The position numbers were made by a program, and so were the translations under genes. The notes under the pieces are model-generated. The model had not been told where the DNA came from. It saw nothing but the letters and a program-made list of their open reading frames with translations, and did not search any database. Positions 2,736 through 60,801 of a stretch of 64,000 bases of DNA are shown here, piece after piece. Origin of the DNA: an uncultured Ignavibacteriaceae bacterium (GTDB lineage: Bacteria; Bacteroidota; Ignavibacteria; UBA10030; BY39). The stretch lies in contig CAZOQB010000008.1 of assembly GCA_964581995.1 (NCBI GenBank), forward strand, positions 77,278 through 141,277, read 5' to 3'. Within the stretch, counting starts at the first letter, position 1. Every line of letters begins with the position of its first letter.

Positions 2736-2850
2736 GTCATTGCGAGTGTAGCGAAACAATCTCAACGTATCGTTTTCGATTGCAGTGAAAGAATATTCCA
2801 AAGAAATCACTTCATTACTACGTGGTGTCCTTGGAACTCCTCGCAATAAC
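2736..2850. repeat. MITE/RPE-like palindromic element
   Basis: Terminal inverted repeats GTCATTGCGAG / CTCGCAATAAC (1 mismatch) with the GCGAAACAATCTC arm typical of GTCATTGCGAG-class intergenic elements. Confidence 0.65.
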
Positions 2851-2945
2851 AATTCGCTTATTTTGGGACAGCCCATACTAAAGTATTTTTTGTGTAACAT
2901 CAGTAACGACTTGACCAGAACGAAATATTTTAGTATCATAGAAGT

Positions 2946-3329
2946 ATGATTGCAAACATCGGCGGAATATTTCTTTACTCAGAGTGTCCAAAAGAACTGG
3001 CAGAGTGGTACAAAAAATTTTTAGGCATCAAATATAAATACACCAAAGAATACGATGCCTACTATGCGTCCTTTCCGTACAAAGACCCTCATCATAAAAA
3101 AGAAACCTATTCAATTTTTTCGATAATGCCATTAAAAAACAAAACCGCACCAAAAGAGCGAGCATTCACAATCAATTTGAGAGTATATGATATCGAAAAA
3201 GTTGTCGACCATTTAATAAAACACGATGCGATTGTCAAAGGAATCGAAATCTACGACGAGGGTAAGTTTGCATGGACAGAAGATTTAGACGGCAACCACA
3301 TAGAGCTTTGGGAAGACACGAATCTCTAA
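2946..3329 (+). CDS. VOC/glyoxalase family protein
   Basis: IGGIFLYSECPKELAEWY..LGI and GKFAWTEDLDGNHIELWE glyoxalase signature. Confidence 0.85.
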   Translation: MIANIGGIFLYSECPKELAEWYKKFLGIKYKYTKEYDAYYASFPYKDPHHKKETYSIFSIMPLKNKTAPKERAFTINLRVYDIEKVVDHLIKHDAIVKGIEIYDEGKFAWTEDLDGNHIELWEDTNL

Positions 3330-3331
3330 AA

Positions 3332-3835
3332 ATGAATAAAGCAAGACAACCAAAATTAGATATAGCACGAACACAAACTGAAACGGTGCTCGAGTTTTTA
3401 AGCGGAGGCATTCTCCTTTTTTTATTCTTTTTGATGTTTCAAAACTGGACCGAAATCCCAGAGTTAATCCCCACGCATTTTGGTGTTTCCGGTAAAGTGG
3501 ATACATGGGGAAGTAAATATACAATTCTTCTTATTCCATCAATCACACTTCTTATCTATGTTGGGCTTACGATACTTTACCGTTTCCCTCACGTATACAA
3601 TTATCCATGGCGAATCACAGATGAGAACGCGACAAGGCAATACATGCTCGCTCGTACTTTTCTGTGCTGGTTAAAATTCGAGCTTGTCGTTCTATTTACC
3701 TGTATCGAATGGACAATAATTCAAGTCGCATTTGGAAAGTCAAGTGGTTTAGGGATCGGATTCCTTCCTTTTTTTATGATAATAGTTTTCGGGACTATCG
3801 GAATTTATTTCTGGCTTGCCTACAAGGCACGCTGA
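3332..3835 (+). CDS. DUF1648 domain membrane protein
   Basis: IPTHFGVSGKVDTWGSK motif plus four TM segments; start reassigned to the ATG at 3332 downstream of the VOC stop. Confidence 0.8.
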   Translation: MNKARQPKLDIARTQTETVLEFLSGGILLFLFFLMFQNWTEIPELIPTHFGVSGKVDTWGSKYTILLIPSITLLIYVGLTILYRFPHVYNYPWRITDENATRQYMLARTFLCWLKFELVVLFTCIEWTIIQVAFGKSSGLGIGFLPFFMIIVFGTIGIYFWLAYKAR

Positions 3836-48731: not shown

Positions 48732-50195
48732 TCATCTCATCAATATCATTTTCTTGGTCTCAATAAAAACTTGTTCTGAGAGAAGCGAAGGATCAACGGC
48801 AACTAATCTGTAGTAATACACACCGCTTGTTACACCTCCTGCGTTCCAGAATAAAGAGTATTCACCTTTTTCTTTCTTCTCTTGAGCGAGTGTTGCTACT
48901 TCCCTGCCCAACAGGTCATACACTTTTAGCGTAATATAACTTTCTCTTGGTACTGAGAAAGATATTTTTGTTTGTGGATTGAAGGGATTTGGATAATTCG
49001 CAGCTAATGCGAAGCTGCCAGTAACATTTGCTCGTTCGTTTACATCGGTGATAAGCATTTGCCAAGTAAGGGTATCTTTCTGGGAATTCTGCCATGCGCT
49101 GCTGTTCCATGTTTGGCATAATTCCTCTGTTATGTTTTTATTTGCATCGTAGGTGTAAGTGTATTTCAACCAATTCACCCACAAACTAGCGTTCCACGTT
49201 TGGTATAACACCTCTGTCCTGTTTTTATTTGAATCATAGGTGTGACTGGATTTAGTATCATTCACCCACGAAGTAGCGTCCCATGTTTGGTATAACCAGT
49301 CTGTCATGTTTCCATTTGCATCGTAGGTGTAAGTGTGTTTGTAAATATCCTCCCACAAACTGCCGTCCCATGTTTGGCATAACCAGTCTGTCATGTTTCC
49401 ATTTGCATCGTAGGTGTAAGTGTGTTTAGTCTCATTCACCCACGAACTTGTGTTCCATGTTTGGTATAACACCTCTGTCCTGTTTTTATTTGAATCATAG
49501 GTGTAGCTGGATTTAGTCTCATTCACCCACGAACTAGTGTTCCAGTTTTGGCATAACGCCTCTATCCTGTTTTTATTTGAATCATAGGTGTAACTGGATT
49601 TAAACTCATTCTCCCACACACTGCCGTTCCATGTTTGGCATAACATGTCTGTCGTGTTTCCATTTGCATCGTAGGTGTAACTGTATTTCACCCAATTCAC
49701 CCACAAACTGTCGTTCCATATTTGGTCTAACCAGTCTGTCATTTTTTCATTTGCATCGTAGGTGTAAGTGTGTTTAGTCTCATTCACCCACACACTGCCG
49801 TCCCATGTTTGGTATAACCAGTCTGTCATTTTTCCATTTGCATCGTAGGTGTAAGTGTGTTTAGTCTCATTCACCCACACATTTGTAAGCGTATCCCATA
49901 ACTGAAATACATCAGAAATCTGTAGATACATCGTATCTGATAGAACCTTAGTAAACTTATCTACTCTTCTATCGGCAAATTTTATATTGAAAAATAATCC
50001 CAGCTCATTCCGGAACTGTTGTTCAATGTGAATTCTAGGATGATGAGGGTATTGCGCGCGCGCGCTATCCACAATCTTTTCCTGAATGAACGTCTGGCAA
50101 TTGTATATGTTTTCCTTTTTCTGAGAGAACACCAACACTGTAAAAGAAACTGTAAGCATCACGATGGCGCTAAAAACAATCGCAAAGCTCTTCAT
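48732..50195 (-). CDS. T9SS type A sorting-domain protein with nine 29-aa repeats
   Basis: Signal peptide; repeats like ETKHTYTYDANGNMTDWLYQTWDGSVWVN; C-terminal NYPNPFNPQTKISF..LKVYDLLGREVATL. Confidence 0.9.
   Translation of the reverse strand: MKSFAIVFSAIVMLTVSFTVLVFSQKKENIYNCQTFIQEKIVDSARAQYPHHPRIHIEQQFRNELGLFFNIKFADRRVDKFTKVLSDTMYLQISDVFQLWDTLTNVWVNETKHTYTYDANGKMTDWLYQTWDGSVWVNETKHTYTYDANEKMTDWLDQIWNDSLWVNWVKYSYTYDANGNTTDMLCQTWNGSVWENEFKSSYTYDSNKNRIEALCQNWNTSSWVNETKSSYTYDSNKNRTEVLYQTWNTSSWVNETKHTYTYDANGNMTDWLCQTWDGSLWEDIYKHTYTYDANGNMTDWLYQTWDATSWVNDTKSSHTYDSNKNRTEVLYQTWNASLWVNWLKYTYTYDANKNITEELCQTWNSSAWQNSQKDTLTWQMLITDVNERANVTGSFALAANYPNPFNPQTKISFSVPRESYITLKVYDLLGREVATLAQEKKEKGEYSLFWNAGGVTSGVYYYRLVAVDPSLLSEQVFIETKKMILMR
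49085..49880. repeat. 87-bp intragenic tandem repeats
   Basis: TTAGTCTCATTCACCCAC recurs at 49774 and 49861 (period 87); about nine units. Confidence 0.9.
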
Positions 50196-51372: not shown

Positions 51373-52098
51373 CTATTTCATTTGTTTAATCCGAATTTCC
51401 GTATTTTTATTTTTCGATAAAAGTTCTTTCAGTGTTGATAAATCAGTATCGCCGTAGTGGTATGGATATAAGATTTTAGGATTAAATTTACCCACAGCAT
51501 CGGCAACTTGTTCGGGCGTCATTGTGTAAGGCTGGTTCATCGGTAGAAATGCGATATCAATATTTTTTAAGTTAGCCATTTCAGGAATATTTTCAGTGTC
51601 GCCGGCAATATAAATTCTGTTCCTACCGATTGTTAACACATAACCATTGTCCCTGCCTTTAGGATGAAACTTCAATCTGTCGGCGGTTGTATTGTAAGCC
51701 GGTACCGCCTCGATTACAATTCCTTCCACCGTCTTCTTATCTCCGTTTTTCATCACCATTCCCTTTTTTATAATTTCGAACACCGCACCGTTCACAACCA
51801 TTTTTGTGTTCATTTTCGTAATCGAATTGATAGCTATCGTATCCAGATGGTCGGGATGCTGATGTGTTATTAGAATTAAATCAGCTTTCGGCTGCTTTGC
51901 ATAATTAGCCAGCTTGCTCCACGGATCGACGTGGATAATTTTATTGTTGAATTCAAACATCAAAGTCCCGTGTCCGATAAAATGGATAGTTAATTTGCCG
52001 GATAGCGTATCAAATGTATCTTTCTCGAATTGATTTTGAGAAATTGCCGGTGTGTTCATCAATAACACGCTGCACAGAAAAATAATTATCCTTTTCAT
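51373..52098 (-). CDS. Exported MBL-fold metallo-hydrolase
   Basis: Signal peptide; GHGT, ITHQHPDHLD, FHPKG, YIAGDT, PYHY. Confidence 0.88.
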   Translation of the reverse strand: MKRIIIFLCSVLLMNTPAISQNQFEKDTFDTLSGKLTIHFIGHGTLMFEFNNKIIHVDPWSKLANYAKQPKADLILITHQHPDHLDTIAINSITKMNTKMVVNGAVFEIIKKGMVMKNGDKKTVEGIVIEAVPAYNTTADRLKFHPKGRDNGYVLTIGRNRIYIAGDTENIPEMANLKNIDIAFLPMNQPYTMTPEQVADAVGKFNPKILYPYHYGDTDLSTLKELLSKNKNTEIRIKQMK

Positions 52099-52221: not shown

Positions 52222-53724
52222 TTGGCAGGCACGATGGTTTACAAGTTAATAAACTTCTCATTAATCTGCTTTCTGGTTTCCGGGGCAAATTGCGACTCTC
52301 AAACTAAGCAATTCGATAGAAAGCCCGCAGTGGCAGGACAGTTTTATCCCTCTGATCCAATCGAACTAAAATCTACTTTAAAAACTCTTTTCTCAAAAGC
52401 AGTTGCTCCAAAGAACATCAAAAATGTGCTTGCAATAATTTCACCGCACGCCGGGTATGTTTATTCTGGCGAAGTTGCCGCATCATGCTTTAACCAAATC
52501 GATCCAAACAAAGTTTACGATAACATTTTCATCATAGGTTCGAGTCATCGCATTGCATTCGAAGGCGCAGCAGTATATTCCAAAGGCAACTTTTTGACAC
52601 CGCTCGGACCTGTAAAAGTGAATGCCGAAATAGGTAAAACATTAATTAAACGCTACAATTTCTTCACTGACAGAGATGAAGCCCACTTATCCGAACACAG
52701 CCTGGAAGTGCAGCTCCCTTTTCTGCAATACATAATGAAAAAAGATTTCAAGATTGTACCAATCGTCCTTGGAACACAAAAGCCAGAGATGTGCAAATTA
52801 ATTGCCGGCGCTTTAAAACCATACCTAAACAGCAAAAACCTTTTCATCATCAGCACAGATTTTTCGCATTATCCGAAATACTCAGACGCTGTAAAAATCG
52901 ATAAGGCAACTGCAGACGCTATAGTTTCAAATTCCTCGAAAAATTTATTAGAAACGTTATCTAAGAACGAAGAAAAGGGTATACCTAATTTAGCAACAAG
53001 TTTATGCGGATGGACTTCGGTTACTACATTGCTCTACATGACTGAAAACACTCCTGGTATCGATGTAAAAGTTATCGATTACAAAAACTCGGGTGATTCT
53101 GAAATCGGAGATAAAAAAAGAGTCGTAGGTTATTATTCATTCGCTGTTTCAATTAAGGAGAAAAAAATGGAATTCAATCTAAACGAAAAGGATAAAAAGG
53201 AATTACTTTCGATTGCACGACGGACAATCGAACAGTATGTAAACAAAAATACTCTCCCGGAAATAGATACATCAAAACTTTCTAATAACGTCAAAACAAA
53301 ATGCGGCGCGTTTGTAACTCTTCATAAGCAGGGTATGCTGCGCGGCTGCATCGGACATTTCGAAGCAGACGAACCGCTCTATAAGATAGTCCAACAAATG
53401 GCAGTTGCGGCATCTACACAAGATTATAGATTCTCACCCGTTAAGCCGAACGAGGTGAAGGAACTCGAAATTGAAATTTCGGCGCTCACTCCGATGCAGA
53501 AAATAAAATCAATCGACGAAATTGAATTAGGAAAACACGGTATATATATTAAAAAGGGACCTCGTGGAGGGACATTTCTACCTCAAGTAGCAACGGAGAC
53601 CGGTTGGACAAAAGACCAATTTTTGGGTTACTGTGCACAGGACAAAGCTGGTCTCGGCTGGGATGGCTGGAAAGATGCAGATATCTATACATATGAAGCT
53701 CTTGTTTTTATCGAGAAGGACTAG
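52222..53724 (+). CDS. amrB: AmmeMemoRadiSam protein B (MEMO1-like) fused to protein A (AMMECR1-like)
   Basis: RKPAVAGQFYP, PHAGYVYSG, EHSLEVQLPFLQ, STDFSHY; then GAFVTL..LRGCIG, EIEISAL, TFLPQVA. Hydrophobic leader; ATG probably 52234. Confidence 0.92.
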   Translation: MAGTMVYKLINFSLICFLVSGANCDSQTKQFDRKPAVAGQFYPSDPIELKSTLKTLFSKAVAPKNIKNVLAIISPHAGYVYSGEVAASCFNQIDPNKVYDNIFIIGSSHRIAFEGAAVYSKGNFLTPLGPVKVNAEIGKTLIKRYNFFTDRDEAHLSEHSLEVQLPFLQYIMKKDFKIVPIVLGTQKPEMCKLIAGALKPYLNSKNLFIISTDFSHYPKYSDAVKIDKATADAIVSNSSKNLLETLSKNEEKGIPNLATSLCGWTSVTTLLYMTENTPGIDVKVIDYKNSGDSEIGDKKRVVGYYSFAVSIKEKKMEFNLNEKDKKELLSIARRTIEQYVNKNTLPEIDTSKLSNNVKTKCGAFVTLHKQGMLRGCIGHFEADEPLYKIVQQMAVAASTQDYRFSPVKPNEVKELEIEISALTPMQKIKSIDEIELGKHGIYIKKGPRGGTFLPQVATETGWTKDQFLGYCAQDKAGLGWDGWKDADIYTYEALVFIEKD

Positions 53725-53735
53725 ATGAAAAAATA

Positions 53736-55925
53736 ATGTCCGCATCGCGTGTAAATCTCGAACCCGCCAATCACAAGTCTAAGATCACATCGAGTTTGAT
53801 TCTTCCCATTGTAGCAGTAGGAGTTTCCTCTATCGTCACACAAATTATATTGCTTAGAGAATTTTTATCCGTCTTTTATGGCAACGAACTCGTAATAGGA
53901 ATTATTCTTGCGAATTGGATGACCCTAACGGGACTCGGATCTTTTATCGGCAGGTATTCAACACGAGTAAAAAATAAATTTAACTTGCTCGTCATTCTGC
54001 TCATACTTATTTCTGTGTTGCCGGTTGTTACAGTTTTCATGGTGGATTTTTTAAGAAATATCGTCTTCCCTGTCGGTACAATGATCGGATTACTACAAAT
54101 CCTCTACAGCTCTTTCATCATTTTAACTCCATTCTGCATCATATCAGGATTTTTATTCACGTTATTCGTTGTTGTTTTATCAGAAAGGTACCAAACCAAT
54201 TTCATTCCTTCTGTGTATTCGTGGGAATCAACCGGAAGCGTTATCGGCGGTTTCATTTTTAGTATCATACTGATTTACCTACTGACTGTGTTTAAAAGTT
54301 TAATTATGCTCATGATTTTTAACCTGAGTATAACTTTTGTTTTCTCGTTCATCTACTGCAACAGAACTATAAAACTTCTTGTCTTATCCCTCCTTATAAT
54401 TTTACCTCTGGGTTTTATGGTTATTGATTTAGACAAAATCTCAAAGGAGTTCCTTTTTCCGAATCAGAAGTTAGTTTATTATAAAGATACTCCTTATGGA
54501 AGCTTGGCAATAACCGAGCAGGGTGAACAAAATAATTTTTATGAGAATAATAACTTGCTTTTCTCTACGAGCGACCCCATAATGAGCGAGGAAGCTGTCC
54601 ATTACGCAATGCTGCAGCATCAGAATCCAAAGACGGTATTATTAATCTCAGGTGGCATATCCGGTCAAATATCAGAAATTTTAAAATACGATGTAAAAGA
54701 CATTATTTATGTCGAAATCAATCCTTGGATAATTTATATAGGGAAAAAGTATTCAACCGATTTAGATAACGTTAAAGTAGAAATAATAAATCGGGATGCA
54801 CGATTGTATATTAAAACCACGGTTGAAAAGTTTGATGTTGCCTTAATCAACCTGCCCGACCCGGCAACAGCTCAATTAAATCGGTATTATACAACAGAAT
54901 TTTTTGATGAATTAAAAAACAGGTTGAACGCCGGAGCTATAGTATCTATCGGGTTGTCATCCTCTGCCGACTATTTAAGCCCTGAAGCGCGTCAAGTAAA
55001 ATCAAGTATCTACAACTCACTAAAACGCTCATTTAAAAACATTCTCATCGTGCCGGGCTATAAAGATTACTTCGTTGCCTCGGATAATATTTTATCAATC
55101 GACATTCCCCGGTTAGTTTACCAGAAAAACATTGAGAATAAATATGTCAACCAATACTATCTGGACAAAAGCATTCTGATACACCGGAGCGAGTTTATCT
55201 TGAGAAGCCTTGATAAAACGACAGCTCTAAATCAGGATTTTTCACCTATTTCGTACTATCAGCAATTAGTTTATTGGTTGAGTTATTTTGAACGGAATTA
55301 TTGGTTTCCCGCTTTTATTGCTGTGTTGATCGTGGCGTTTCTGATTTCTCAGCTCAACACAATCAGCTTTGGCCTGTTCACCGGTGGTTTTTCGGCTTCC
55401 TCGGTAGAAATAATTCTTTTAATAACATTTCAGATTCTTTACGGTTATGTCTTTCAAATCACGGGAATCATCATCACCATATTCATGGCTGGGCTTGCAG
55501 TTGGCTCGCGATACTATAATAAAATGTTTTCGGACATTACAATGTTCAGCTACGTAAAAATACAATTTGGCATTGGAATATTCACGTCGCTTCTACCTCT
55601 TACTTTCTTCTTTTTAAGAAATTTTTCCATATATCCAGTTTTAATACATTCATTATTTTTTGCCCTGACTTTTATTGTTGCAGTTCTTATAGGCGTTGAA
55701 TTCGCGATTGCTTCTCGGTTACGTAAGCTGTCGTTTCCGCACGCAGCTGCTAATTTGTACAGTGTCGATTTAATTGGTTCGGCAATCGGTGCTTTACTCG
55801 CATCGACATATCTCATTCCTATATTAGGAATTATTAATGTGTGTTTCTTGATTGCCGGCTTGAATTTTATCAGCGGAAGTGTTTCATTTATTAACAGAAA
55901 TAAATATTTAACATCCGTTGTTTGA
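53736..55925 (+). CDS. Membrane protein with spermidine-synthase-like domain (fused MFS-like/SpeE)
   Basis: About 7+6 TM helices around YKDTPYG, EEAVHYAM, VLLISGG, YVEINP, FDVALINLPDP, NRYYTTEFF. Confidence 0.85.
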   Translation: MSASRVNLEPANHKSKITSSLILPIVAVGVSSIVTQIILLREFLSVFYGNELVIGIILANWMTLTGLGSFIGRYSTRVKNKFNLLVILLILISVLPVVTVFMVDFLRNIVFPVGTMIGLLQILYSSFIILTPFCIISGFLFTLFVVVLSERYQTNFIPSVYSWESTGSVIGGFIFSIILIYLLTVFKSLIMLMIFNLSITFVFSFIYCNRTIKLLVLSLLIILPLGFMVIDLDKISKEFLFPNQKLVYYKDTPYGSLAITEQGEQNNFYENNNLLFSTSDPIMSEEAVHYAMLQHQNPKTVLLISGGISGQISEILKYDVKDIIYVEINPWIIYIGKKYSTDLDNVKVEIINRDARLYIKTTVEKFDVALINLPDPATAQLNRYYTTEFFDELKNRLNAGAIVSIGLSSSADYLSPEARQVKSSIYNSLKRSFKNILIVPGYKDYFVASDNILSIDIPRLVYQKNIENKYVNQYYLDKSILIHRSEFILRSLDKTTALNQDFSPISYYQQLVYWLSYFERNYWFPAFIAVLIVAFLISQLNTISFGLFTGGFSASSVEIILLITFQILYGYVFQITGIIITIFMAGLAVGSRYYNKMFSDITMFSYVKIQFGIGIFTSLLPLTFFFLRNFSIYPVLIHSLFFALTFIVAVLIGVEFAIASRLRKLSFPHAAANLYSVDLIGSAIGALLASTYLIPILGIINVCFLIAGLNFISGSVSFINRNKYLTSVV

Positions 55926-55928
55926 TAA

Positions 55929-57110
55929 ATGAACAAATATTCTGCTAATAGTATTAACAAACGAGAATTCATTAAGTCCTGCACATTCGGGATTGGCGCT
56001 TGTGTTCTCGGCTTACACAATCTAAAAACGATTGCCGGACCTGTTACTGATAAATTAAAGCCCGAGCAGTCGCCGGACGTTTTATGGCGGTGGAGTAGGG
56101 AAGCTTTATTCTACACAAAAACTCCCGACGGTTTGAAATGCCAGAAGTGCCCCCACGAATGTTTACTGAGTGAAGGTGAGACGGGGATTTGCAGAACCAG
56201 AGTTGCGCACAAAACTAAACTTTACACAATTGCGTATGGTAATCCTTGTGCGATTCATATTGACCCGATTGAGAAGAAACCTTTTTTCCATTTCTTACCG
56301 CTGACTCGAGCATTTTCTATCGCTGTAGCTGGTTGTAACTTTCGTTGTTTGAATTGTCAGAACTGGCAGATTTCCCAATTCAGTCCGAAGGAAACCGATA
56401 ATTATGACATGATGCCTGAAAATATTGTCGAGCAGTGTTTAAAAAACAAATGTGAATCTATTGCTTACACTTACTCCGAACCGATAACATTTTACGAATA
56501 CGCATACGACACAGCAAAGTTAGCAAGAGAAAAAGGAATAAAAAATGTCTGGAAATCAAACGGCTATATAAACGAAATACCTCTCAGAAAACTATGCAAG
56601 GTTATAGATGCGGCAAATATAGATTTAAAGATATTTGATAATGAAACATATTTAAAGTTGAGCGGCGGAAAGTTAGAACCTGTTCTGCAAACATTAAAAA
56701 CTTTTAAGGAAGAAGGAGTGTGGCTCGAGATAACAAACCTCGTCATTCCAAGCTGGACAGATAACCTCGACACGATAAAGAAAATGTGCGATTGGTTAGT
56801 TAAGAATAATCTTCAAGATTGCCCGTTGCATTTCAGTCGGTTCACACCTCTGTATAAATTAACGCAACTTCCACAAACTCCAATACAAACGTTAGAGAAA
56901 GCAAGAAAAGTTGCATTAAAGTCTGGGATAAAATATGTTTATATCGGAAACGTACCCGCGCATAAGGCGGAAAACACTTTTTGTCACAAGTGTGAAAGAG
57001 TGGTCGTGGAAAGGAGAGGTTTTACGATTATTAAGGACGAACTTGTCTCCGGAAAATGCAAGTTTTGTGGCGAAAATATTCCCGGAGTTTGGACTAAGAA
57101 ACCTATGTAA
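55929..57110 (+). CDS. amrS: AmmeMemoRadiSam radical SAM enzyme, copy 2, with Tat-like leader
   Basis: CQKCPHEC..C, DPIEKKPFFH, GCNFRCLNCQN, YTYSEP, HFSRFTP.Y, YVYIGN; N-terminal NKREFIK plus hydrophobic stretch. Confidence 0.9.
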   Translation: MNKYSANSINKREFIKSCTFGIGACVLGLHNLKTIAGPVTDKLKPEQSPDVLWRWSREALFYTKTPDGLKCQKCPHECLLSEGETGICRTRVAHKTKLYTIAYGNPCAIHIDPIEKKPFFHFLPLTRAFSIAVAGCNFRCLNCQNWQISQFSPKETDNYDMMPENIVEQCLKNKCESIAYTYSEPITFYEYAYDTAKLAREKGIKNVWKSNGYINEIPLRKLCKVIDAANIDLKIFDNETYLKLSGGKLEPVLQTLKTFKEEGVWLEITNLVIPSWTDNLDTIKKMCDWLVKNNLQDCPLHFSRFTPLYKLTQLPQTPIQTLEKARKVALKSGIKYVYIGNVPAHKAENTFCHKCERVVVERRGFTIIKDELVSGKCKFCGENIPGVWTKKPM

Positions 57111-59688: not shown

Positions 59689-60801
59689 TTAATGGTTATT
59701 TTTTTTACTAATGTATCTTGTGTACTCTTTTTGTAGCCTTTTCAACATAAATTCACGCTTATGGTATAAACGTTTTAATTTTCTCGGTTTCACATTGCCC
59801 AACGCATACGAAGTGATAATCGGGAGGGCTATCGTAGAATCTGAATACACCACAACTGTACCGGATAATTGTTCAGGGTCAACTTTTCCCCAGCTTACGG
59901 CTTCGGAAGGTGTTGCGCCTGATAAACCGCCTGTATCGGGACGTGCGTCTGTAACCTGAAGAAAATAATCGTGTCCTTTTTCATCTATCTTTAAAACTTC
60001 CTGAAGATGCGGCTCAGTTTGAAGCATAAAGTTTTTAGGCGACCCGCCGCCAACAATAAAAACTCCGCTCTTTCCATTGTTGCGCTTCGCGTTTAATACA
60101 ATTGCTGCCGTCTCATTTACATCGGCTAAAACGTTTATTCTTGTTTTATAACCGGACAATGCTATTTCCGCGATATTCATACCGATAGAGCTATCGCCGG
60201 GCGCAGATGTGTAAATAGGAACACCCGCTAAGTATGCAGCTGACAGAATACTGCGGTTTTTAATTTTAAGAACACGCTCACGTTCTAAAATATACCTACC
60301 TATCTTATAATGCAGCTCTGAAGTACTTATTTCAGCTTGAAACTCCGGAAGGCGTATTATTTTTCTAAAAAACTCATCGGTGGAAAGCAGCACATTGTAA
60401 TCAAAAAGAATATCATAAATTCGGACAACACCTTCCTTTCTCAATATCTTATCGTCAAGAAACGGAGAGCCGCGATGCATAGTGTATCCCAATGCAAAAT
60501 GGGCATCGTGATAAAGATTTGCACCCGTGCTTACTATCCAATCTACAAAACCCGATTTAATCAACGGAACGATACACGTACCACCCAACCCTGCCGGTGT
60601 TAGCGCGCCAGTCAAGCTCATTCCAATAGTCACATCGTTTTTTAGCATTAATTGGGTGTATAGATGGGATGCTTCACGCAAACGCCCTGAATTGTACGCT
60701 TGAAAATAATCGTCAACTAATTTTGTAACAGATACATTCTTCGGAATCGGGTCGTAGGTTATTGGTTTTCCTGAAAGAAAGAGATGTTTTGGTTTTTTCA
60801 T
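59689..60801 (-). CDS. Deoxyhypusine synthase-like protein (candidate homospermidine synthase)
   Basis: [35 protein letters not shown] with the catalytic Lys retained. Confidence 0.88.

Follow-up and report, generated by a model that had tools for sequence, protein, structure and literature searches.

Candidate export leaders and a membrane-bound SpeE-like partner suggest a periplasm-facing AmmeMemoRadiSam system in an uncultured Ignavibacteriaceae bacterium

The stretch of DNA analyzed here, called the window, is 64 kb long and comes from an uncultured Ignavibacteriaceae bacterium. Three ORFs packed at 52222-57110 (+) encode, in order, a fusion of the Memo and AMMECR1 families (AmrB-AmrA), an MFS-like membrane protein with an inserted spermidine synthase-type (SpeE-fold) domain, hereafter MFS-SpeE-like, and AmrS, the radical S-adenosylmethionine (SAM) enzyme of the AmmeMemoRadiSam system. 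Judged from sequence, the three products would reach the outer face of the cytoplasmic membrane by three different means, each of them conserved: a Sec-type leader, a helical hairpin and a leader of the twin-arginine translocation (Tat) type. These features suggest that the trio is a periplasm-facing version of the AmmeMemoRadiSam system, a reading to which we assign a probability of about 0.55. An initial annotation had described an extracytoplasmic AmmeMemoRadiSam system built around a membrane SpeE-like protein. The leaders, the start codons, the co-occurrence of the genes and the predicted periplasmic domain bear this out. Its suggested use of decarboxylated SAM (dcSAM) and its count of 13 transmembrane (TM) helices do not stand, and the lysine-arginine form of the window's AmrS leader falls short of the curated Tat model.

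The intergenic gaps of the trio are 11 and 3 nt, as first described, and the genes flanking it lie on the opposite strand or about 200 nt away. A simple scan detected no terminator-like site in either gap and one weak candidate inside the middle gene. The three genes are predicted to be a co-transcribed unit. Its components are encoded together, and the AmrB, AmrA and AmrS models all scored above their curated NCBIfam cutoffs (for ORF1, 255.7 bits with TIGR04336, AmrB, cutoff 26, and 173.1 bits with TIGR04335, AmrA, cutoff 99). The metal-site and family motifs PHAG, SSH, TDFSH, LCGW and LRGCIG of ORF1 are all intact. The host DNA has a G+C content of about 38%, and the best homologs are from Ignavibacteriales and Bacteroidota metagenome-assembled genomes (MAGs).

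The Memo-AMMECR1 ORF can be read from a TTG at 52222, and the ATG at 52234 is the likelier start. Its leader reads M-V-Y-K-LINFSLICFLV-SGANCDS↓Q (the arrow marks the predicted cleavage site) and has a basic n-region, a hydrophobic core, small residues at -3 and -1 and Gln at +1. The last of these is the hallmark of the Q-rule, by which signal peptidase I substrates of the Bacteroidetes carry Gln at +1; the rule is valid for 77% of the predicted exported proteins of Ignavibacterium album (PMC5837995). The Sec-like leader noted initially proved to be conserved in all 62 Memo-AMMECR1 orthologs with a complete N-terminus, every one of which has a basic n-region, a strongly hydrophobic core and the pattern [C/G/A]-x-[S/A/P]↓Q. 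Since Gln at +1 is conserved, cleavage by signal peptidase I under the Q-rule is predicted. A lipoprotein (signal peptidase II) leader was rejected: most orthologs have N, E, D, T, H or Q immediately ahead of the Cys, which does not fit the lipobox [LVI][ASTVI][GAS]-C, 12 of the 62 have no Cys-x-x-Q/E motif, and the Gln at +1 is invariant. Two other signal peptides of the same genome, serving as internal controls for the Q-rule, likewise end before Gln. One (VFS↓QKK) belongs to a 487-aa secreted protein at 48732-50195 (-), which has about ten tandem 'YTYDxNxNxT...W.N' repeats of RHS/DUF3836-like type and a type IX secretion system (T9SS) C-terminal sorting domain; the other (AIS↓QNQ) belongs to a metallo-beta-lactamase (MBL)-fold protein encoded at 51373-52098 (-), divergent from the trio.

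AmrS begins MNKYSANSI-NKREFIK-SCTFGIGACVLGL-HNLK and is the only ORF within the window that matches the Tat-motif pattern. Tat signals combine the motif S-R-R-x-F-L-K with an h-region that is rich in glycine and weakly hydrophobic, and their passengers carry a cofactor (PMC7317946). The motif [STN]-[KR]-R-[EQD]-F-[LIMV]-[KR] is present in 169 of 172 clade-1 AmrS orthologs (120 from a protein search and 52 from species-representative genomes), and the first pair in these leaders is K-R in 160, R-R in 8 and K-K in 1. It is followed by an uncharged, visibly Gly/Cys-rich stretch (median 14 residues, mean Kyte-Doolittle 1.13), and in 114 of the 169 the first charged residue beyond it is basic. The h-region and c-region of the family are thus of the Tat type, and the passenger is an iron-sulfur (FeS) enzyme. 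R-R orthologs of the same clade pass the curated Tat model TIGR01409 with 17.8-21.8 bits (cutoff 16.7). A natural K-R substrate of the Tat pathway is known in TtrB, also an FeS protein (PMC1182353).

Neither leader belongs to the core of its family, because the Memo model begins at residue 33 and the AmrS model at residue 65. In amrS, codon 1 is followed by no in-frame ATG, GTG or TTG before codon 69, which sits two residues ahead of the first conserved Cys. The AmrS leader therefore cannot be skipped, and the concern that the true start lies downstream of it falls away. The division of the leaders between two pathways is coherent, because AmrS needs FeS loading in the cytoplasm, as suits Tat, and Memo-AMMECR1, which has no such cofactor, suits Sec (cf. 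PMC7317946). AmrS would fold and receive its clusters in the cytoplasm before export by Tat, and Memo-AMMECR1 would be exported unfolded by Sec. One trio-bearing Bacteroidota MAG, a complete chromosome, also encodes, at L077:14-2161 (+), a 715-aa protein with a canonical R-R Tat motif (MNRREFITITGGGIFLF...), which suggests that the lineage uses the Tat pathway.

The trio recurs well beyond the window. Comparison of the middle protein with one genome per GTDB species gave 80 loci (lineage 1), and 46 close relatives with at least 39% identity and enough sequence on both sides were counted. The trio is complete in 39 of these, with Memo-AMMECR1 adjoining on the same strand or divergent and AmrS downstream; four have Memo-AMMECR1 only and three have neither amr gene. 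All five AmrS-anchored contexts, a KSB1 genome included, have the trio among unrelated flanking genes. The carriers of the unit identified in this analysis are without exception MAGs. The SpeE-like gene thus accompanies amr genes elsewhere, as the initial annotation would have it. A fourth conserved gene was considered and rejected, the insertions between the SpeE-like gene and amrS being sporadic (DUF559-like, hydrolase, ATPase, antitoxin). The MBL-fold, methyltransferase and 135-aa neighbor genes of the window are not conserved near the trio elsewhere. The leaderless AmmeMemoRadiSam systems of Ideonella, Trichlorobacter and Sinorhizobium have no MFS-SpeE-like gene.

A second lineage comes largely from metagenome contigs of Thermodesulfobacteriota or 'Deltaproteobacteria' type. 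Its MFS-SpeE-like gene is about 30% identical to that of the window and adjoins radical SAM genes in L069 and L096; in a metagenome scan with this gene, AmrS-type radical SAM genes were near it in 16 of 23 loci with adequate flanks, and many of these genes have R-R motifs. No Memo/AMMECR1 gene was seen in any of the 80 lineage-2 loci. In the AmrS of this lineage (clade 2) the Tat-like leader has K-R in 95 sequences and R-R in 20, and an S-x-A↓Q site comes after it. Three loci (L114, L118, L152) have up to three AmrS-type paralogs around one MFS-SpeE-like gene, each with R-R (LNRRRFLQ, LSRRDFLK, LNRRSFLK). Lineage-2 AmrS often occurs beside a member of another radical SAM family, here called rSAM2, which is about 24% identical to AmrS. 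Members of rSAM2 have the Cys motifs CQLCPxxC and CNLRCxFCQNW and a canonical twin-arginine leader, M-x-F-T-R-R-[DE]-F-[IL]-[KR], which passes TIGR01409; they match no specific NCBIfam model. Methylocystis rosea has an AmrS-rSAM2 pair with neither leaders nor membrane gene. The contexts of the two lineages together show the MFS-SpeE-like protein as a recurrent partner of AmrS-type radical SAM enzymes with leaders; on gene order, Memo-AMMECR1 appears to join them in the Bacteroidota/KSB1 lineage. At L096 the lineage-2 MFS-SpeE-like gene adjoins a DsbD_2-family membrane protein gene (2757-3365, +) and an MBL-fold protein gene (1934-2725, +). Members of the DsbD_2 family convey reducing power from one side of the membrane to the other. 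The two genes are found together in 1 of 45 loci with enough downstream sequence, and their presence is probably incidental.

An AlphaFold2 model of the membrane protein, built on 62 homologs (pLDDT 86, pTM 0.85), has 14 TM helices, one more than first counted, arranged 7+7 around the soluble residues 245-516. Residues ~23-209 (TM1-6) are homologous to residues ~545-723 (TM9-14) (hhalign probability 91.6%, E 8e-7), and the architecture is therefore 6+2+6. In the model the TM7/TM8 hairpin carries the soluble domain across to the opposite side of the membrane. Lys plus Arg average 16.1 on the side of the N- and C-termini over the 62 homologs and 5.9 on the side of the domain (2.1 in short loops), with the bias in the same direction in all 62. 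This predicts cytoplasmic termini, like those of MFS proteins, and a periplasmic SpeE-fold domain. The two homologous six-helix bundles and the predicted cytoplasmic termini are those of an MFS protein. The top 50 PDB matches of a separate N-half model in Foldseek, all of them weak, are MFS or MFS-like (FLVCR2, G6PT, GLUT1, OxlT, NorA and others). NCBI labels the homologs 'fused MFS/spermidine synthase', and the window's protein scores 37.8 bits with the corresponding model NF037959 (cutoff 40).

An additional N-terminal module of about 115 aa, with three TM helices and four conserved His (T-H-R-K, W-H-V, F-H-x-x-W-H), is present in about 10% of the MFS-SpeE-like homologs (12 of 120; 840-864 aa). 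Its carriers include P0135, P0138, P0146, P0164 and P0168, and it occurs in loci L009, L010, L012, L016, L019, L021, L036 and L039. An identity with DUF4405 or cytochrome b was considered and rejected, there being no Pfam match. A metal or haem may be bound there, and the module would then be interesting with regard to electron supply.

The topology bears on a cytoplasmic alternative, in which the N-termini are tethers or vestigial signals, the SpeE-fold domain lies in the usual cytoplasmic central loop of MFS proteins, and the proteins form a membrane-associated complex. In its favor, SAM and the strong reductant that radical SAM enzymes require are both cytoplasmic, K-R is the rule in the AmrS family and scores under the Tat model cutoff, and some cytoplasmic enzymes, NarG among them, have vestigial Tat motifs. 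For this alternative, however, the leaders would have to be tethers and TM7 and TM8 not membrane-spanning, whereas these are strongly hydrophobic helices on either side of the SpeE-fold domain, and the positive-inside count places that domain outside in 62 of 62 homologs. The leaders have a complete n/h/c anatomy, with S-x-A↓Q sites in lineage 2 and Gln at +1 in Memo-AMMECR1, the R-R orthologs pass TIGR01409, and the positive charges N-terminal to the h-region would orient the C-terminus outward. A cytoplasmic system is, on this evidence, quite unlikely.

The soluble domain of ORF2 matches Spermine_synth (PF01564) at residues 283-405 with 71 bits, and Foldseek finds the full SpeE fold, an N-terminal beta domain plus a Rossmann domain (1uir, 3anx, 1inl, 3o4f; E down to 6.5e-12, TMt ~0.70). 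The motifs LLISGGISG and INLPDP, first read as degenerate SpeE motifs, are both present: SGGISG stands for GGGDGG, and NLPDP for D-S-T-D-P. Residues equivalent to those of the Thermotoga maritima enzyme are included in Table 1. We take D101 of that enzyme to contact the dcSAM amine, D170 to be the catalytic Asp, E121 to bind ribose and N152 to mark the adenine-binding position. None of 156 relatives (76 of lineage 1 and 80 of lineage 2) has an acidic residue at the D101 position or Asp at the D170 position. The same survey found E314 and D354 kept in all or nearly all sequences, position 327 always acidic (E or D), and D367 in 154 of 156. Since the equivalents of D101 and D170 are absent, being Ile and Asn in the window, the use of dcSAM by the middle protein, as suggested in the initial annotation, is unlikely. 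The middle protein, on these residues, is predicted not to be a polyamine aminopropyltransferase, and its SpeE-fold domain resembles a module that binds an adenosyl ligand. As descriptions of function, the labels 'spermidine synthase' and 'fused MFS/spermidine synthase' for the middle gene are probably mistaken, as probably is 'pyruvate formate lyase activating enzyme' for AmrS.

That the middle gene encodes an ordinary membrane-bound spermidine synthase, as the JGI label has it, and neighbors the amr genes by chance is highly improbable. The Pfam match and the full SpeE fold (TMt ~0.70) speak for it, as does a gene 2.6 kb downstream of the operon, at 59689-60801 (-), for a protein of the deoxyhypusine synthase family (PF01916, 248 bits), a family of spermidine-using enzymes. 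No gene of that kind was found among the called genes of the five AmrS-anchored contexts. The protein is, however, far below the SpeE equivalog cutoffs (78.8 bits against 249.55 for TIGR00417; 175.2 against 472 for PRK03612), neither Asp equivalent is present in any of the 156 relatives, the domain is predicted to be periplasmic, and the synteny with amr genes is kept across phyla while the flanks differ.

The preferred reading of a periplasm-facing trio leaves room for more than one role of the membrane protein. The three proteins would act jointly at the surface of the membrane, and their target would be a molecule that is exported or belongs to the envelope instead of a nucleic acid. Because the adenosyl residues are kept and the amine-binding and catalytic Asp are lost, the SpeE-fold domain may bind SAM or another adenosyl ligand. 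In true SpeE enzymes the negative charge of the Asp pair disfavors the SAM carboxylate, and its loss would remove both catalysis and this obstacle. The MFS part would move SAM, or a substrate, outward, and the disabled SpeE-fold domain would hold the adenosyl ligand and pass it on to the exported AmrS; delivery of SAM in this way would solve its supply outside the cytoplasm. We hold this role tentatively, as possible rather than probable. An extension of it, a class of extracytoplasmic radical SAM enzymes (AmrS and at least one sister family) served by SAM-exporting MFS proteins with a disabled periplasmic SpeE-fold domain, is speculative and on balance unlikely.

Another possibility is that all three proteins face the periplasm and the membrane protein exports or presents a substrate (lipid, isoprenoid, quinone or small metabolite) at a conserved periplasmic-side site, instead of SAM. 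AmrS would then be exported with SAM bound and use it as a regenerated cofactor (cf. lysine 2,3-aminomutase) or for few turnovers. The most conserved motif of the membrane protein, LLREFLSVFYGNELVIGIILANWM, is in the TM1-loop-TM2 hairpin on the predicted periplasmic side, as such a site would be. Tat exports folded proteins with their cofactors bound (PMC7317946). Several Tat-leader AmrS genes (L093-L095) are without an MFS-SpeE-like neighbor, and some MFS-SpeE-like genes have no nearby amr partner (L015, L039, L056 and Omnitrophota loci), so the protein must have a function of its own. AmrS, however, belongs to the group of enzymes like the pyruvate formate-lyase (PFL) activases, and these consume SAM stoichiometrically. 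The adenosyl-binding residues are moreover invariant or nearly so in the 156 sequences, which argues for a nucleotide ligand and not a lipid. Export or presentation of a substrate is the main alternative, held a little less strongly than SAM delivery, with which it shares the periplasmic placement of the trio. Paralogous MFS-SpeE-like genes at L014:556-5283 and L015:317-5730, from the same MAGs as trio-linked copies (L021, L081), adjoin FeoB-, NikM/DUF4198- and CooC/ParA-type-looking genes, and not amr genes, by a reading of N-terminal sequences only; these neighbors hint that some members are metal-related in role.

Several points weigh against a periplasm-facing trio, among them the two sets of unpartnered genes just named. 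We know of no SAM or low-potential reductant in the periplasm, and of no SAM-exporting MFS protein. An extracytoplasmic radical SAM enzyme is surprising because its cofactor SAM is known only inside the cell. The TM halves have no Pfam MFS match, Pfam and PDB sequence searches having returned nothing, and the Foldseek matches of the N-half are weak (E at least 0.08, TMq 0.38-0.57). Segatella hominis has a hydrophobic N-terminus on Memo-AMMECR1 and a leaderless AmrS. On its plasmid NZ_CP137560.1 the amrB fusion (L088:3468-5885) starts with MRKIVLVVLLTMCMMMEAK, and the adjoining amrS (295 aa) has stop codons just upstream; there is no MFS-SpeE-like gene. A motif search for tatA and tatC in the window and the fetched loci (about 1.0 Mb) saw none, which is uninformative at that coverage. 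The window's AmrS has K-R in place of two consecutive arginines, and its leader gave no match to TIGR01409; two other K-R leaders of the family scored 12.2 and 12.8 bits. What stands of the Tat-like NKREFIK leader first described is thus its conservation, and not a pass of the curated model, which is reached by R-R orthologs only. Model Tat substrates tolerate the replacement of R by K poorly (PMC7317946).

The coordinates of the features discussed are collected in Table 1.

Table 1. Features of the trio, residues of the SpeE-fold domain aligned with the T. maritima enzyme, and rSAM2 genes. Coordinates are those of the window unless a locus is named.
Feature	Position	Strand	Remarks
Memo-AMMECR1 (AmrB-AmrA) fusion gene	52222..53724	+	500 aa counted from TTG
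Sec/signal-peptidase-I type leader, M5-S26	52234..52299	+	predicted cleavage S26↓Q27, Gln at +1
Memo domain, residues 34-306	52321..53139	+	PF01875, 223.5 bits
AMMECR1 domain, residues 330-496	53209..53709	+	PF01871, 180 bits
14-TM MFS-like membrane protein with inserted SpeE-fold domain	53736..55925	+	729 aa
TM1-TM7, residues 19-229	53790..54422	+	AlphaFold2 (AF2) helices; TM1-6, first MFS-like six-helix bundle; TM7 predicted to lead to the periplasm
SpeE-fold domain, residues 245-516	54468..55283	+	predicted periplasmic; no Cys
TM8-TM14, residues 523-719	55302..55892	+	TM8 predicted to return to the cytoplasm; TM9-14, second bundle
amrS, AmmeMemoRadiSam radical SAM enzyme	55929..57110	+	393 aa; TIGR04337, 348.9 bits (cutoff 220), residues 65-392
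Tat-like leader, ~residues 1-37	55929..56039	+	Gly/Cys-rich h-region, basic c-region; cleavage site uncertain
Tat-like motif N-K-R-E-F-I-K in AmrS leader	55956-55976	+	
Extra Cys motif CQKCPHEC in AmrS	56139-56162	+	
Radical SAM cluster motif CNFRCLNC (CxxxCxxC), residues 136-143	56334..56357	+	
T. maritima D101 (GGGDGG)	I308		replaced
T. maritima E107	E314		kept
T. maritima E121	E327		kept
T. maritima N152	D354		kept
T. maritima D165	D367		kept
T. maritima D170	N372		replaced
rSAM2 gene beside Tat-leader AmrS	L093:8342-9436	-	rSAM2 genes encode 351-364 aa
rSAM2 gene beside Tat-leader AmrS	L095:5850-6905	-	
rSAM2 gene beside Tat-leader AmrS	L096:5776-6834	-	

The function of AmmeMemoRadiSam, like that of human MEMO1 and AMMECR1, is an old open problem. 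Burroughs et al. reportedly proposed in 2019 (JBC) a modification of nucleotide bases and isoprenoids. A branch in which all proteins face the envelope would narrow the candidate substrates to envelope molecules, which argues against a nucleic acid for this branch. To our knowledge, radical SAM enzymes are treated as strictly cytoplasmic, since they need SAM, a low-potential electron donor and oxygen-free FeS clusters. The group of AmrS proteins with Tat-type leaders comprises thousands of metagenomic proteins in Bacteroidota/Ignavibacteria, KSB1 and Thermodesulfobacteriota; so large and conserved a group challenges that view and raises the question of how SAM reaches the periplasm. If the proposals above are right, radical SAM chemistry outside the cytoplasm and a bacterial SAM exporter would each be seen here for the first time. 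They would also suggest that Memo and AMMECR1 proteins act on a small molecule or an envelope component.

The component families are already known and are named in public annotation. A literature search found no description of a Tat-exported radical SAM enzyme, and the radical SAM enzymes of the HXS defence system act in the cytoplasm. In titles and abstracts 'AmmeMemoRadiSam' appeared only as an annotation label. The combination of 'fused MFS' with 'spermidine synthase' gave no match, and a link of such proteins to radical SAM genes was not found described. Relative to the searchable literature, three things appear to be new: the proposed exported arrangement, the association of MFS-SpeE-like proteins with Tat-leader radical SAM enzymes, and the predicted periplasmic, disabled SpeE-fold domain.

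Compared with known systems, the trio has the three AmmeMemoRadiSam families (TIGR04335 AmrA, TIGR04336 AmrB, TIGR04337 AmrS) co-located, with signature and CxxxCxxC motifs intact; it differs in the predicted export leaders outside the family models, in the fusion of AmrB to AmrA, and in the 14-TM MFS/SpeE-like gene between them. The middle protein has a SpeE fold on a polytopic membrane part in common with PRK03612, an aminopropyltransferase with an N-terminal membrane domain, and with NF037959. It is, however, under both cutoffs, the Asp residues are replaced (I308, N372), and its domain lies between two six-helix bundles and is predicted to be periplasmic. AmrS partially matches models of the PFL activating enzyme and other glycyl-radical activases, far below their cutoffs; unlike them it has no glycyl-radical enzyme encoded nearby, and it has additional N- and C-terminal Cys motifs and the leader. 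With the Tat-exported FeS proteins (Rieske proteins, hydrogenase small subunits, TtrB) the AmrS family shares the S/T-[KR]-R-x-F-L-K leader, the Gly-rich, weakly hydrophobic h-region and the basic c-region, and TtrB shows that a K-R leader can be functional (PMC1182353, PMC7317946). The AmrS family differs from these proteins in that the cargo is a radical SAM enzyme and in that K-R, instead of being an exception, is dominant across the family.

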